64,000 nt of DNA from Squalus acanthias (Eukaryota), in contig CM059448.1 in NCBI GenBank assembly GCA_030390025.1, positions 7,068,001-7,132,000 of the forward strand. The letters are read 5' to 3'. Positions 19,335 to 59,960 of the stretch are shown one piece after another. Position 1 is the first letter of the stretch, and the number at the start of each line of letters is the position of its first letter. The translations under genes were made by a program, and so were the position numbers. The notes under the pieces are model-generated. The model had not been told where the DNA came from and searched no databases. It saw nothing but the letters and a program-made list of their open reading frames with translations.

Positions 19335-19890
19335 GTGTGCCAGAGACCCGAGCACACAATCTAGGCCGACACTCCCGGTGCAGTGCTGAGGGAGTGCTAC
19401 ACTGTCAGAGGTACCGTCTTTCGGATGAGATGTTAAACCGAGGCCCAGTACCACCCACTCAGGTGGACGTAAAAGATCCCACAGCCACTATTTTGAAGAA
19501 GAGCAGGGAGTTATCCCCAGTGTCCTGGCCATTATTATACCCTCAAACAACATCACTATAAAACAGGCCAGGCAGCATCTGTGGAGAGAGAAATGTTTCT
19601 CTCTCTCTCTCCACAGATGCTGCCGGCCTGCTGGGTAGTTCCAGCATTGTCTGCTTATGTTTCAGATTTCCAGCATCCGCGGTATTTTGCCTTTGCGTCA
19701 CTAAAAAACAGATTATCCGGTTATTATCACTCTGTCGTTTGTGGGAGCTTGCTGTGCGCAAATTGGCTGCCGCGTTGCCCACATCACAACAGTGACTGCA
19801 CTCCAAAAGTAATTCATTGGCTGTGAAGCGCTTTGGGACGTCGTGAGGTTGTGAAAGGTGCTATATAAATGCAAGTGTCTCATTCTTTAC
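19335..19890 (+). mobile_element. Deu-SINE interrupted by a hairpin element at 19564-19695
   Basis: Deu core GTCTTTCGGATGAGATGTTAAACCGAGG; tail resumes at ~19697. Confidence 0.88.
19564..19695. mobile_element. Short foldback insertion, probably a Penelope-like terminal-repeat remnant
   Basis: Inverted arms CAGGCC(A)GGCAGCATCTGTGGAGAGAGAAA / TTTCTC..CCACAGATGCTGCCGGCCTG; TCACTA(T/A)AAA-like sequence on both sides. Confidence 0.6.
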
Positions 19891-28712: not shown

Positions 28713-29349
28713 CAATGGGAGTCATTTTAACTCGGCAGATAGTGTAAAAATAGGTGATATCCAATTGGCCCGCCCATTATACACCTCGCCCAGCTTTAAT
28801 GGAAGGGGGTAAATCGTCGAGGGCGGGTAATTGGATTTGGTCCATCACCCAACGTCACTCAATGCCTTTGGGACAAGGGAAAGAGAAAAGAAAAAAAGAG
28901 ACAGAAATCCGTCAGAAGACCCGCTGGAGAAAGGAAAACACAGGCAGACGGGAGGCCACACATCACACCCACGCCAATAACACAGACCAGAAACTGTGAC
29001 CACTGGCAATGACTTTCCATTCAAACCAAACAAGCTGTAAGAGCCTTTCTCTTAGTCATTCCGTCTGGTCTCCCAGGCCACCTGACTCATCACAGTTTGG
29101 TGGGGGGGGTAGAGCTCTGTCCAATCCAAGCTCACTGAAACATGACACACGAGGGTAAAGGTCGGCACCTCTCAACTCCCCACCCTCTCTACAATTACTC
29201 ACTTGCAATTTAATCAGTCAGGTTTGCTATTGATTTGAGAAAAGATGAGGCAATAATGGTAATGAATGGAGTCAAACAAAAACCAATATTAAAATACTGG
29301 TATCTAAAGATTAAATATATGAAGTTCCTGATTTCCTTTCTCCTTTTAA

Positions 29350-29672
29350 AAATTCATTTTCAAGATGTGGGCATCGCTACAGCAAGGCCAACATTTATTG
29401 CCCATCCCTAGTTGCCCTTGAGAAGGTGGGGGCGGGCCTTCACACGGAGGGTGGTGAATCTTTGGAATTCTCTACCCCAGGGGGCTGTGGAGGCTCAGTC
29501 GTTGAGTATATTCAAGACAGAGATCGATAGATTTTTGAATATTAAGGGAATCAAGGGATATGGAGATCGGGCGGGAAAGTGGAGTTGAGGTCGAAGATCA
29601 GCCATGATCTTATTGAATGGCGGAGCAGGTTCGAGAGGCCGTATGGCCGACTCCTGCTCCTAATTCTTATGT
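29350..29672. mobile_element. Minus-strand LINE tail (29350-29440) joined to plus-strand CR1 3' end (29443-29672)
   Basis: GATGTGGGCATCGCT..ATTGCCCATCCCTA, then GTGAATCTTTGGAATTCTCTACCCCAG and CR1 tail. Confidence 0.82.
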
Positions 29673-29995
29673 TAGCTCCGGCAGAAAATCCCCAAAACCC
29701 GGAAGCGCCAGGGCGAGGGCTCCTGAAGGAATTTCCGCCTCCCGTCCATTGGCGTTATGCTGGGGTCGGGGTCGGGGGGGGTGGAATCCGGGCTGAGGAC
29801 TCCTGTGGATTCAACACGAGAAATTTAAACCGATCTCCCCGTCACTGACTGGCCTCACGGCCCAAAGAATCGGAATGTTCGGTTGCCCAGCAACAAAGCC
29901 CCTCAACCTCGGTGAGCACCAAATTCAGAGGGGGGGGGGGGGGGGGGGGGGGATTCGGGGGAAGAAATAGTTCGCTGCTCCAGTTAAACAATCTC

Positions 29996-30105
29996 GCATT
30001 ACAACAGTGACGACACTTCAAAAGTACTCCATTGGCTGCAAAGTGCTTTGGGACGTCCTGGAGTCTTAAAAAAGGCACGATATAAAAGCAAATTCTTCCT
30101 TGCTT
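29996..30105 (+). mobile_element. Deu-SINE tail fragment
   Basis: ATTACAACAGTGACGACACTTCAAAAGTAC.. Confidence 0.8.
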
Positions 30106-30116
30106 CTTTATCTCAA

Positions 30117-30362
30117 GATGTGGAGATGCTGGTGTTGGACTGGGGTGGACAAATGTGAGAAGTCGCACAACACCAGGTTATAGTCCAACAGTTTTATTTT
30201 AAATCACAAGCTTTCGGAGCGCTGCTCCTTCGTCAGGTTCACCTGAGGAAGGAGCAGCCGCTCCGAAAGCTTGTGATTTCAAATAAAACTGTTGGACTAT
30301 AACCTGGTGTTGTGCGAATTCTCACTTTGTCCACCCCAGTCCAACACTGGCATCTCCGCATC
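30117..30362. mobile_element. Palindromic pair of Penelope-like terminal repeats
   Basis: ~120 bp inverted arms centred near 30239; each arm has a CTGAnGA-stem-GAAA motif followed by an AATAAA. Confidence 0.8.
30239..30276 (+). ncRNA. Minimal type I hammerhead ribozyme motif
   Basis: TCAC-CTGAGGA-A-GGAGC-AGCC-GCTCC-GAAA-GC-TT-GTGA: stem I TCAC/GTGA, core CUGANGA, stem II GGAGC/GCUCC, GAAA, palindromic AGCU stem III, CUU site. Confidence 0.7.
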
Positions 30363-30365
30363 ATA

Positions 30366-30944
30366 ACCTTTATAAAACCATTGGTTTGGCCCCAACTGGA
30401 GTATTGTGTCCAATTCTGGGCACCGCACTTTAGGAAGGATGTGAAGGCCTTAGAGAGGGTGCAGAAAAGATTTGCAAGAATGGTTCCAGGGATGAGGGAC
30501 TTCAGTTACGTGGATCGACTGGAGAAGCTGGGGTTGTTCTCCTTAGAGCAAAGAAGGTCGAGAGGAGATTTGATAGAAGGGTTCAAAATCATGAGGCGTT
30601 GAGACAGAGTAGATCGAGAGAAACTGTTCCCATTGGCGGAAGGGTCGAGAGCCAGACGACACAGATTCAAGGTGATTGACAGAAGAACCCAAAGGCGACA
30701 TGAGGGAAAACGTTTTTACGCAGCAAGTGGTTAGGATCTGGAATGCACTGCCTGAAAGGATGGGGGAGGCAGATTCAATCGTGGCTTTCAAAAGGGAGTT
30801 GGATAAGTACCTGAAGGAAAAAAATTTGCAGGGCTACGGGGAAAGGGCGGGGTGAGTGGGACTCGCTGAAGTGTTCTTGCAGAGAGCGGCACGGGCTCAA
30901 CGGGCCAAAAGGCTTCCTTCTGTGCTGTAACCAGTCTATGATTC
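30366..30944 (+). mobile_element. CR1 LINE 3' fragment
   Basis: ORF 30312 LVWPQLEYCVQFWAPHFRKDVKALERVQKRF...RGDLIE; CR1 tail. Confidence 0.92.
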
Positions 30945-30956
30945 TAACCCTCAACA

Positions 30957-31315
30957 TCCTTGCCTAACAAAAATCTATCAATCTCAGTTTTGAAATTTTC
31001 TATTGACCCCCAGCCTCAACAGCTTTTTGAGGAGAGAGTTCCAGATTTCCACTGCCTCTTGTGTAAAGAAGTGCTTCCTGACATCAACCCTGAACAGCCT
31101 GGCTCAAATTTTAAGGTTTTCCCTCCTCTTTCTAGACTCCAACCCCCCCCCGCCCCCCGTCGCCAGAAGAAATAGTTTCTCTCTATCTACCCTATCAAAT
31201 CCTTTAATCATCTTAAACACCTCAATTAGATCACCCCTTAATCTTCTATACTCAATGGAATGCAAGCCTAGACTAGGCAACCTGCCCTCATAATTTAACC
31301 CCTTTAGCCCCGATG
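30957..31315 (-). mobile_element. CR1 LINE fragment
   Basis: ORF 31104 LGLHSIEYRRLRGDLIEVFKMIKGFDRVDREKLF. Confidence 0.88.
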
Positions 31316-31334
31316 CCATACTGAAGAACTTGCG

Positions 31335-32150
31335 TATACAAATCACCTTACCACAACCTTGAGACGTCTCAAAGTGTTGCACACCAATAGACTACATTTT
31401 GGAAACAACAGCAACAGCCAACTGTGCACAGCAAGGTGCCACAAACAGCATATGAACGAATCATCAATGAATCTATTTTTCTAGCGCTGTTAACTGAGGG
31501 ACGAATGTTGGCCCGGATATTAGGAGAACACCCTGCTCTTCTTTTAGTGTCGCGGGATCTTTTTCGTCCAACCAATCAGACCTCAGAAAGACGGCACCTC
31601 TAACAATGCAGCACTCCCTCAGTACCGCACTGAAGTGTCAGCATTGGATCAATGGTAGCGCTCTCGCCTCGGAGTCAGAAGGCTGTGGATTCAAGTCGCA
31701 CACCAGAGACTTGAGCACGTAATCCAGGCTGACACTCCAGTACAATAACTGTGGGAGCGCTGCACTGTCGGAGGTGCCGTCTTTCGGATGAGACAGTAAA
31801 CCGAGGCCCCGTCTGCCCTCTCAGGCGGACATGGAAGATCGCATGGCGCCAGTGGAAGGAGAGCACGGGAGTTCTACTGGTGCCCTGGCCCAATATTTAT
31901 TTCTCAAGCAACATCACGAAAAAAAAATTGACCATTTACCTCATTTGCTGTTTGTGGGAGCTTGCTGCGCGCAAATTGGCTGCTGGCGTTTCCCTACATT
32001 ACAACAATGACTGCATTTGGAGGTCCTGAAAGGTGATATATAAATGCAAGTTTGTTCTTTCTTTGAAGCATCAGTCTAGATTACGTGCCCACGTTCTGGA
32101 GTAGACCCATAACCTTTGTACTCAGAGGGCAAGGGGGCTACCAGATGATT
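31335..32150 (-). mobile_element. Older antisense Deu-SINE split by a sense Deu-SINE
   Basis: Tail and body at 31335-31640, head at 32065-32150. Confidence 0.7.
31637..32064 (+). mobile_element. Deu-SINE, near full length
   Basis: tRNA head with GGATTCAAGTC, Deu core, tail ATATAAATGCAAG. Confidence 0.9.
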
Positions 32151-32173
32151 CAAGTGAGGGCTTAAATAAATAA

Positions 32174-32389
32174 TGATGCGGAGATGCCGGTGTTGGACTG
32201 GGGTAGACAAATGTGAGAAGTCGCACAACACCAGGTTATAGTCCAACAGCTTTATTTGAAATCACAAGCTTTCAGAGCGCTGCTCCTTCATCTCTTCACT
32301 TCACCTGACGAAGGAGCAGCGCTCCGAAAGCTTGCGATTTCAAATAAAGCTGTTGGACTATAACCTGGTGTTGTGCGACTTCTCACTTG
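32174..32389. mobile_element. Second palindromic Penelope-like terminal-repeat insertion, with 10 bp TSD
   Basis: Same sequence as 30117; AAATAAATAA at 32164-32173 and 32390-32399. Confidence 0.8.
32301..32337 (+). ncRNA. Minimal hammerhead ribozyme motif (stem I mismatch)
   Basis: TCAC-CTGACGA-A-GGAGC-AGC-GCTCC-GAAA-GC-TT-GCGA. Confidence 0.62.
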
Positions 32390-33205
32390 AAATAAATAAC
32401 ACATTGGCATTTTGCAAATCAGGGCCACTGTCCTTTTTTTTAAAAACAAAAGTGAGGTTAAATATCCTCTGGTCTTGCCAAAGCAGTTCCGGAGCCCACA
32501 TTATCTTTTACAGGTTAGGAACCACTGCGTGGTGACAAAACAATTCAGCAATAAAACAGGGTGAAAAGGTCACCCACTTCACAGGTTGGAGGGGGGGGAA
32601 AAAAAACTTAACACGCTCATAATAAAAACGCCACGTCATTCTCGAACACGGACTGGTGCGGAATCGCTGAAAGCACACCCTAGCAACCACCATATCCCAG
32701 AGCGCTTTCAAGTTTCCACAGCCTGTGCCTCCCAAGAAGGGAGCTGCAGATTTTCACTCATTTGTCGTCGTCCCCCCCCGCCCTGACTTTCTGCAACAAC
32801 AGGTTAGCTGCCCCAGGAGTTTCTTTTCAGTGCCGCAACGCGCCCTACACGTCCTGCGTTCTAAAAGGAGAAGGGGAAAAAAATAAAAGTCAACGGCCGC
32901 TTTTTCCCACAGCGGATTATTTACCGTTGAATGACTTTCTAATTTTAGATTTTATTTTTCCACATTGTTATCCGGGCCTGTGTGTAATCTCACTGAGGGA
33001 TTCAAAGCCACACCAGGGTTTACTGACGCTGAGGAACCAGATAGCTGCTCTTGGGTAAACTGTCCCTTCTCCCTCTCAGTAATTGTTTCTTTCCTTTCCT
33101 TTCACTGGCCCTCTTCAGCCCACCAAAAACTTTAATATCCTCTGCGCACTTAAGCATTGAAAGTTTTAAATACAAGCAAATTTCCCCCACCCCCTTCCAA
33201 TATTT

Positions 33206-33551
33206 AGGTCAGAAAATCCCCACAGAAATCATTCTGGACACCAGGCCAGAAAATCCCCACAGAAACACCACACCACAACAGGTCAGCAAATCCCCACAGA
33301 AACATTTTCCCACAACAGGTCAGAAAATCCCCACAGAAACATTTTCCCACACCAGGTCAGAAAATCCCCACAGAAACATTTTCCCACACCAGGCCAGCAA
33401 TCCCCACAGAAACATTTCCCCACACCAGGCCAGCAATCCCCACAGAAACATTTCCCCACACCAGGCCAGCAATCCCCACAGAAACATTTTCCCCACACCA
33501 GGCCAGCAATCCCCACAGAAACATCGCCTCACACCAGGCCAGCAATCCCAT
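33206..33551. repeat. Minisatellite, ~34-36 bp unit, ~10 copies
   Basis: CAGGCCAGCAATCCCCACAGAAACATTTCCCCACAC tandem units. Confidence 0.95.
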
Positions 33552-57775: not shown

Positions 57776-59960
57776 AACAACAACAACTTTATTTATGTAG
57801 CACCTTTAACATAGTAAAACGTCCCAAGGTGCTTCACAGGAGTATTACAAGACAAAAAATTTGGCACCGAGCCACATAGGAGAAATTAGGACAGGTGATC
57901 AAACGCTTGGTCAAAGAGGTAGGTTTTAAGGAGCGTCTTAAAAGGAGGGAAGAGAGGCGGAGAGGTTTAGGCAGGGAATTCCAGAGCTTAGGGCCTAGGC
58001 AGCTGAAGGCACGGCCACCAATGGTTGAGCGATTATAATCAGGGATGCTCAAGAGGGCAGAATTAGAGGAGCGTAGCTATCTCAGAGGGTGGGTGTCTGA
58101 AGGAGATTACAGAGATAGGGAGGGGCGAGGCCATGGGGGGATTTGAAAACAAGGATGAGAATTTTGAAATCGAGGTGTTGCTCAACTGGGAGCCAATGTA
58201 GGTCAGCGAGCACGGGGGTGATGGGCGAATGGGACTTGGTGCGAGTTAGGACACGGGCAGCTGAGTTTTGGATCACCGCTCACCTCAAGTTTACATAGGG
58301 TAGAACGTGGGAGGTCAGCCAGGAGTGTGTAGGAATAGTCAAGTCTAGAGGTAACAAAGGCATGGATGAGGGTTTCAGCAGCGGATGAGCTGAGGCAAGG
58401 GCGGAGACGGGCGATGTTACAGAGGTGGAAATAGGCGGTCTTAGTTATGCTGCGGATATGTGGTCGGAAGCTCATTTCAGGGTCAAATATGACACCAAGG
58501 TTGCGAACAGTGTGGTTCAGCTTCAGACAGATGTTAGGGAGAGGGATGGAGTCAGTGGCTAGGCAACGGAGTTTGTGGCGGGGACCGAAAACAATGGCTT
58601 CGGTTTTCCCAATATTTAACTGGAGAAAATTTCTGCTCATCCAGAATTGGATGTCGGACAAGCAGCGCGTCAATTTAGAGACCGTGGAGGGGTCGAGAAA
58701 AGTGGTAGTGAGGTAGAGCTGGGTGTTGTCAGCATGCTTATGGAAACTGAACCAGGGGGTCACAGTCTCAGAATAAGGGGTCGGCCATTTAGGACTGAGA
58801 TGAGGAGAAATTTCTTCACTCAGAGGGTGGTGAATCTTTGGAATTCTCTACCCCAGAGGGCTGTGGAGGCTCAGTCGTTGTGTATATACAAGACAGTGAT
58901 CGATAGATTTTTGAATATTAAGGGAATCAAGGGATATGGGGATAGTGCAGGAAAGTGGAGATGAGGTAGAAGATCAGTCATGATCTTATTGAATGGTGGA
59001 ACAGGCTCAAATGGCCTACTCCAGCTCCTATTTCATATGTTATGTTATGTAACTGTCGCTGTGTTTTCGGATGATGTCGCCCAGGGGCAACATGTAGATG
59101 AGAAATAGGAGGGGGCCAAGGATAGATCCTTGGGGGACACCAGAGGTAACGATGCGTGAGCAGGAACAGAAGCCGTTGCAGGTTATTTGCTGGCTTCGAT
59201 TTGATAGATAAGAATGGAACCAGGCAAGTGCAGTCCCACCCAGCTGGGCGATGGTGGAGAGGCGTTGGAGAAGGATGAAGTGGTCAACCGTGTCAAAGGC
59301 TGCAGACAAGTCAAGAAGGACGAGGAGGGATAGTTTACCTTTGTCACAGTCACAAAGGATGTCATTTGTGACTTTGAGGAGAGGCGTTTCGGTACTGTGG
59401 CAAGGGTGGAGGGATTCAAACATGGAGTTGTGGGAAAGATGGGCACGGATTTGGGAGGTGACAACATGTTCAAGGACTTTGGAGAGGAAAGGGAGGTTAG
59501 AGATGGGGCGGTAGTTTGCAAGTACGGAGGGGTCAAGGGTTGGTTTTTTGAGGAGAGGGGTGCTGACTGCAGATTTGAGGGAGAGGGGGACAGTACCTGA
59601 GGAGAGAGAACCTTTAAAAATGTCAGATAACATGGGAGCCAGAAAAGGAAGTTGGGTGGTCAGCAGTTTGGTGGGAATAGGGTCGAGGGAGCAGGAACTG
59701 GGTCTCATGGAAAGATGAGCGCAGAGAGGTCATGAGGGGAGATCGGAGAGAAACTGGAGAAAGATGCAAGTTCAGGGCTAGGGCAGGGGGGAACCTTAGA
59801 AGAAGTTTGGCCCGGTGGGCTAGGGGAAAGAAGGGAAGTGGCAGAGGCAGCTGAACAGATGCTCTCAATCTCAGAGACAAAGAAGTCCATGAGCTCCTCA
59901 CACTTGTTGTCGGAGGTGAGGGTGGAGGAGACAGGGGAGAGGGGTTTAAGAAGATGGTTA
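57776..59960 (-). mobile_element. L2 LINE, ~2.2 kb span, with disrupted RT domain
   Basis: ORF 59040 NYRPISNLPFLSKVLE..LLDLSAAFDTVDH..GVPQGSILGPLLFLIY; ORF 58203 HADNTQLY..LQLNIGKTE..RNLGVIFD; (AAC)n tail. Confidence 0.96.
58751..59050 (+). mobile_element. CR1 3' end inserted into L2
   Basis: GHSLRIRGRPFRTEMRRNFFTQRVVNLWNSLP; AACTG duplicated at 58745 and 59051. Confidence 0.92.

Follow-up and report, generated by a model that had tools for sequence, protein, structure and literature searches.

We read the palindrome at positions 30117-30362 of the window (the whole stretch of 64,000 nucleotides of Squalus acanthias DNA analyzed here) as two head-to-head, 5'-truncated copies of the pseudo-LTR (pLTR) of a Penelope-like retrotransposon, likely formed when both nicked strands of a target primed near the front of the element RNA, and this particular copy as a likely inert fusion (probability roughly 0.8). 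The 246-base stretch matches its own reverse complement at 93%, its arms (30117-30238 and 30241-30362) are 92-96% complementary, and its predicted fold has an energy of -220 kcal/mol, so that the palindrome is far beyond chance. Each strand carries a hammerhead core, a 5-bp stem II, a GAAA box, a palindromic four-base stem III position and an AATAAA hexamer. The component features are the following.

30115..30239, minus strand: left arm, a 5'-truncated pLTR copy with a long, tailed end, spanning about -122 to +2 with respect to the start codon of the element; 94% by blastn to the full-length copy L063
30239..30364, plus strand: right arm, a 5'-truncated pLTR copy (about -125 to +2) with a long, tailed end; 92% by blastn to L063
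30204..30240, minus strand: minimal hammerhead motif of type I with a 3-nt loop, its stem I shortened by the junction to 2 bp and its cut predicted after 30208 (sequence, motif scan, alignment, folding)
30239..30276, plus strand: minimal hammerhead motif of type I with stems I and II of 4 and 5 bp, a 4-nt loop and a cut predicted after 30272 (sequence, motif scan, alignment, pair counts)
30193..30198, minus strand: AATAAA of the left arm (sequence)
30282..30287, plus strand: AATAAA of the right-arm pLTR (sequence; kept across subfamilies)
30237..30242, no strand: head-to-head junction with a 1-base arm overlap, 2 and 5 bases upstream of the two cores (arm mapping)
30115..30155, minus strand: tail of the left arm, about -39 to +2 (blastn to L063, comparison of ends in the family)
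30325..30364, plus strand: tail of the right arm, the second tail being an anomaly of this copy (comparison of ends in the family)

In the plus-strand motif, stem I pairs 30239-30242 with 30273-30276, the core begins at 30243 and stem II pairs 30251-30255 with 30260-30264, while the core of the minus-strand motif runs downwards from 30236. The sequence, its self-complementarity and a motif scan all confirm the palindrome and both motifs where the sequence-only reading had placed them. That reading had also given a stem I of 4 bp on the plus strand and about 2 bp on the minus strand, as found here in the sequence and by folding, and the plus-strand cut predicted after 30272 agrees with its own. 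The AATAAA of the pLTR, judging from its sequence, is likely the polyadenylation signal of the element.

Each arm corresponds to the last ~125 bases of the pLTR, directly before the start codon. The repeat is very abundant, a 23-mer of the arm having 59,215 exact matches in the genome (29,720 + 29,495) and its reversed control none. A genome search gave 3,805 candidates, 40 of which were scored, and in one match the arm continued into the start of an open reading frame (ORF). Searching with this piece yielded 1,104 candidates; 30 loci were examined for an open frame and in three of them the 527 codons in view were all open. Twelve of the loci were fetched and revealed pLTR-ORF-pLTR units; in three of these, L061, L062 and L063, the ORF is 896, 888 and 891 aa long, and L063 is a monomer of 3,132 bases. 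The 891 aa protein is a single ORF with a reverse transcriptase (RT) domain (RVT_1, E 2.8e-9) and a DKG motif in its sequence. EN+ Penelope-like elements have a C-terminal GIY-YIG endonuclease with a CCHH motif. For the C-terminus of the dogfish protein, the nearest Atlas clusters (score 0.96) carry GIY-YIG (PF01541) in 23-31% of their members and two cysteines precede the YIG motif; residues 710-891 had no match in Pfam and none among solved GIY-YIG structures. A C-x4-C-x2-C linker is present in all three proteins, and the available text of PMC8557442 assigns a CX2-5CxxC linker between RT and endonuclease (EN) to Neptune and Nematis, not to Penelope/Poseidon. The family also has pLTRs flanking the ORF, a tail of 30-40 bp and an inverted 5'-truncated copy. 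The Penelope origin proposed from the letters of the window is upheld by this linkage of the repeat to an ORF with an RT and a putative GIY-YIG C-terminus elsewhere in the genome. The accompanying statement that no Penelope ORF lies in the window also stood, as blastn of the window against the full-length copy recovered only pLTR pieces and a 43-base match resembling the 3' UTR, and the one RT match among the window ORFs scanned does not match that copy.

Two further features of the full-length element deserve mention. Just past the stop codon, L063 carries on the minus strand (1545-1470) a decayed second hammerhead-like motif, with the start of the core, a 5-bp stem and a broken GAAA box. It is fixed in the 3' UTR of several subfamilies, a related piece matches the window at 19604-19646, and it is possibly a relic pLTR of another family. 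Within the pLTR, a word resembling a splice donor coincides with the hammerhead cut site, and a branch point, a pyrimidine tract and an AG are found in the tail region (window 30273-30339; pLTR about -91 to -24). Splicing of a candidate intron between the cut site and about -24 would deprive the 5' pLTR of its AATAAA; among the 15 joints listed, out of 29 on a pLTR-ORF stretch in three contig runs that we guess to be RNA and one likely DNA run, none supports this candidate.

How the family inserts can be seen in a sample of 60 regions, unselected for structure, that include 98 of the first 100 matches on one contig (C1, 5 Mb of it). It contains 42 head-to-head insertions, 41 of them distinct (L160 and L161 are one insertion duplicated), with lengths from 130 to 2,575 bases. 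All 42 combine a long and a short end, that is, one arm ends near the start codon and the other about 38 bases earlier (mostly 30-45), and 40 are flanked by a target duplication of 9-17 bp (mode 12-13), compared with 1 in 172 mismatched-flank controls. The claim that the termini are inverted was borne out, head-to-head pLTR ends being common in the family. Pooling all loci (n = 98, about half of them selected: 25 events on the short end and 25 on likeness to the window copy, together with the 38 of the 42 C1 events retained by a stricter duplicate and edge filter) gave 96 long+short, two long+long and no short+short events, with a duplication in 93 of the 96 and in neither of the two. The inner ends cluster. 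Among the 116 of 126 arms that could be placed (ends past about 134 bases being pooled at that limit), 39 fall within 5 bases of an initiator-like A at about -127 from the start codon, a rate of 0.061 per base, as against 0.002-0.003 in the preceding 45 bases. A TATA-like box lies 30-31 bases upstream of the initiator-like motif and is kept in diverged subfamilies (assessed by eye and from consensus matches only). The hammerhead cut site was checked for a similar accumulation and showed none, only 2 of the 116 arms ending there.

At the base that follows AATAAA, the two arms of an insertion are the same in 82 of 85 pairs, where 33.7 would be expected if they were independent, whereas in the main subfamilies agreement at the stem II loop falls to 42 of 55, against 65 of 68 at the polyA-adjacent site (Fisher p = 0.002). 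This pattern suggests that the 3' part came from a single RNA and that either exchange or RT error affected the hammerhead core; the low agreement at the loop is not accounted for by a simple one-RNA model and counts against the mechanism set out below.

These patterns can be accommodated by a mechanism that we consider moderately probable. The endonuclease would make a staggered cut in the target, priming would take place at the start codon on one target strand and ~38 bases upstream of it on the other, and both cDNAs would extend to the RNA 5' end at the TATA/initiator-like site. Without a jump of either cDNA to the RNA 3' end, short homologies would join the two into a palindrome of ~200 bases. 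A more detailed version, tentative and falling somewhat short of even odds, would have an RT-endonuclease dimer cutting with a stagger of 12-13 bp and making obligatory use of both RNA start sites, one per strand. The ~200-base palindromes would then be double strong-stop products whose transfer to the RNA 3' end failed, the cDNAs halting, as retroviral strong-stop DNA does, at the transcription start, and template exchange would be concentrated in the hammerhead core, upstream of the cut site. L1 twin priming is the obvious analogue of double priming. In vitro, an anole element cuts both target strands and extends them, starting reverse transcription at two internal RNA sites between which the tail lies, according to the available text of PMC11167929; this precedent is of Poseidon type and its sites are found within the ORF, at 111-118 bases, rather than at the start codon, which weakens its support. 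A Drosophila Penelope promoter is TATA-less (PMC2377424), which also counts against a start at a TATA/initiator site.

Self-priming or fold-back, offered for head-to-head copies in the accessible part of PMC3846280, would have the first cDNA or an antisense transcript serve as the template of the second arm, with endonuclease resolution setting the short end. It would yield one long and one short end and a high identity between arms such as the 82 of 85 found at one site. Moreover, identical central junctions were found at different insertion sites (L143 660-1020 and L145 675-1016; L153 663-978 and L160 648-953), so that templates containing a junction do exist, which again counts in its favor. 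We nevertheless regard it as quite unlikely for the family. By a hand count, the short-ended arm extends more than 20 bases further upstream than the long-ended one in 12 of 42 events (for example L111, L128, L139 and L164), and fold-back cannot explain these because a copy of the long arm cannot reach beyond it. It is also at odds with the 13 of 55 pairs that differ at the stem II loop and with the piling up of inner ends at a promoter-like site of the sense strand. The junction shared by L143 and L145 occurs with long and short ends swapped, so some palindromes appear to have templated new insertions.

Such recurrence (two junctions, two sites each) and the thousands of ~210-base palindromes that match the window copy would also fit a separate family of non-autonomous mobile elements, similar to MITEs or retrozymes, copied as a unit. 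This is highly improbable, since the central junctions differ between nearly all short copies, the family version of the window copy's centre has only 16 exact matches genome-wide and lengths span the whole range given above. Neither tandem arrays of units nor a fixed internal sequence copied as a unit was found.

The palindrome at 30117-30362 departs from the pattern of the family. Instead of the single tail and target-site duplication expected of a primary insertion, this copy has two long ends, two tails and no target duplication, the best repeat between its flanks being 6 bases (chance level, with none of at least 7). Its flanks are the following.

29997..30113, plus strand: left flank, a dispersed repeat that we take to be SINE-like, represented by its 3' end and ending in a tail rich in T and C (74 blastn matches among the fetched loci and the window, most of them ending at 30050-30110)
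30363..30930 (right boundary approximate), plus strand: right flank, a LINE-like repeat in which this insertion point is a recurrent target (39 genome matches of the target beside a short arm; junctions)

The two flanks are unrelated to each other, and the upstream part of the LINE-like repeat, present in the canonical insertions there, is missing to the left of the window copy. This repeat has two recurrent target sites about 40 bases apart (L209-L238, L007, L147, L152, L164, L236), and L236 was hit at both. The arms of the window copy differ at four sites that vary in the family, including position -39, at which the arms agree in 30 of 32 canonical pairs and disagree in both long+long copies. 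By these variants, the two arms stem from different templates. The only other long+long copy seen (L002, 1501-1758) likewise has mismatched arms and no target duplication.

Since both its arms are long and of different templates, and its flanks are unrelated and lack a duplication, the window copy is probably a fusion of two insertions. Recombination between two palindromes, in which their short arms and the intervening DNA were lost, would be its probable origin. An exchange with the neighboring copy at 32.2 kb was considered and rejected, given that this copy keeps its own target duplication. Two gap-pattern searches for the reciprocal product (22 + 39 matches) gave no match on the contig of the window and no short+short event among the 52 of the 61 matches examined, nor was the pre-fusion allele found in the gap-pattern and target-site matches. 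Alternatively, a single insertion might have been primed on both strands at the long site from two distant nicks, with deletion of the DNA between them. Both junctions do resemble normal long-arm junctions and 3 of the 96 long+short events are likewise devoid of a detectable duplication, but none of the 42 unselected events is long+long and both long+long copies disagree between arms where 30 of 32 single events agree, so we find a single event unlikely.

The hammerhead itself, judging from its pairing, is conserved in the element: 95.6% of 90 cells are paired and two-sided changes are found in 2 of 9 pairs, among 10 hand-picked rows of subfamilies and the window. The motif has the core boxes, an extra base after position 9, the G10.1-C11.1 pair, palindromic positions 15.2-16.2 and both stems I and II. 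This anatomy and the pair counts bear out the earlier assignment to minimal type I with palindromic stem III positions. The search with Rfam hammerhead models that had been suggested along with it gave no match up to E = 10 in 29000-31500, and for this reason the call of a ribozyme rests on motif anatomy and covariation. A mir-1597 precursor, at 38.5 bits against a gathering score of 93 in Rfam, was dismissed as a matter of hairpin shape only.

Within the palindrome the ribozyme fold is predicted to be strongly disfavored. Every transcript of it carries one hammerhead, not two, preceded by its own complement, and forcing the ribozyme fold costs 52 (plus) or 49 (minus) kcal/mol relative to the hairpin; it is still 45-47 kcal/mol worse in transcripts stopped 10 bases past the cut site, as compared with a cost of 1.5 kcal/mol in the plus arm alone. 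The AATAAA is paired inside the same predicted stem. Any transcript of the palindrome would very probably fold as a hairpin without self-cleavage. The long hairpin expected by the sequence-only reading, if the site is transcribed, is thereby supported by fold prediction, and its orientation-independent cassette for cleavage/termination is not, as the ribozyme fold is disfavored by about 50 kcal/mol.

A host use of the palindrome as such a cassette, for RNA cleavage, termination or as a double-stranded RNA substrate in either orientation, seems extremely improbable to us. Both cores and both AATAAA hexamers are intact, and a 120-bp hairpin, if transcribed, would be a plausible substrate of ADAR or Dicer. 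Yet intact motifs are expected in a copy differing by about 6-8% from the full-length one, and tens of thousands of like copies exist, the palindrome belonging to a large set of comparable products of insertion whose junctions are individual. To the folding energies can be added that a single minimal hammerhead showed no cleavage in vitro (available text of PMC4209133) and that the anole hammerhead needed the protein of the element (available text of PMC11167929).

Most of these traits have counterparts in known systems. EN+ Penelope-like insertions have been described with an inverted 5'-truncated copy and a one-sided tail of 30-40 bp (PMC8557442; Pen2a_Av in PMC3846280, both in their accessible portions). 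The dogfish family resembles them in its head-to-head inverted pLTRs, tail at one end, target duplication and TATA and initiator-like pLTR motifs, but differs from those described there in that an insertion is often just two pLTR pieces of ~100-130 bases. The one-tail rule holds in all 42 unselected dogfish events, unlike in the window copy. The core boxes, the extra base before stem II, the G-C first pair of stem II, the palindromic stem III positions and the 4-bp stem I are all shared with the minimal hammerheads of metazoan Penelope-like elements (PMC4209133, as far as its available text goes), although stem II has 5 bp in the window motif and 7-8 bp in the Schistosoma families. The same text describes pairs of hammerheads on opposite strands, 100-700 bp apart. 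The two motifs of the window abut instead, and each is consequently sequestered by the other arm.

PAc, a Poseidon element of Anolis carolinensis, offers further parallels in the accessible text of PMC11167929: two fixed 3' ends bounding the tail and a hammerhead near the start codon. The hammerhead of PAc cleaves only with protein and is dispensable for insertion in vitro, and in the dogfish too the uncut RNA seems to be the template, given how few arms end at the cut site. The two differ in the linker, which in the dogfish ORF is that of Neptune/Nematis, and in the position of the ends (-38 and +2 in the dogfish, +111 to +118 in PAc), and the accessible text on PAc contains no model of the inverted copy. 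Non-LTR retrozymes, in the available text of 10.64898/2026.07.22.740005, are similarly short, pLTR-related, hammerhead-bearing and non-coding; they form head-to-tail tandem arrays, whereas the dogfish palindrome is head-to-head with a variable center.

The remainder of the window holds another member of the family, absent from the earlier annotation, with its junction at a 4-base shared word.

32164..32399, no strand: second, canonical copy with a long left arm and a short right arm (element 32174-32389) and a 10-bp target duplication at 32164-32173 and 32390-32399 (inverted-repeat search, blastn, comparison of ends)

To look for a host gene context, domains were scanned in 138 of the 182 window ORFs of at least 90 aa, and all that emerged was an RT fragment at 59040-59729 on the minus strand (RVT_1, E 8.7e-17), presumably from an L2/CR1-like LINE by its motifs. 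A 41-base inverted repeat at 31583-31788 lies, we assume, around the tRNA-like head of a SINE-like element, and a tandem array of a ~31-base unit occupies 33200-33500 and beyond.

Both the head-to-head layout and the type of ribozyme are already published. By titles and opening lines of abstracts, and outside repeat databases and closed-access papers, no publication was found that describes the dogfish family or a strong-stop reading with one site per strand. What is added here is the family statistics only, which suggest that reverse transcription primed by the two target strands begins at two fixed RNA sites and runs off at the predicted transcription start. The locus itself is transposon debris of small importance, the family being somewhat more important. 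The available text of PMC8557442 calls it an open question by what route Penelope-like elements acquire inverted and tandem ends, and the young copies of the dogfish family, which number in the tens of thousands and have exact target duplications, constitute a large natural record that predicts the two priming sites, the stagger and the stop site. These predictions are testable with the existing in vitro assay on the intact ORFs. If many of the palindromes sit in transcripts, the family would also be a large source of perfect double-stranded RNA in the dogfish genome.
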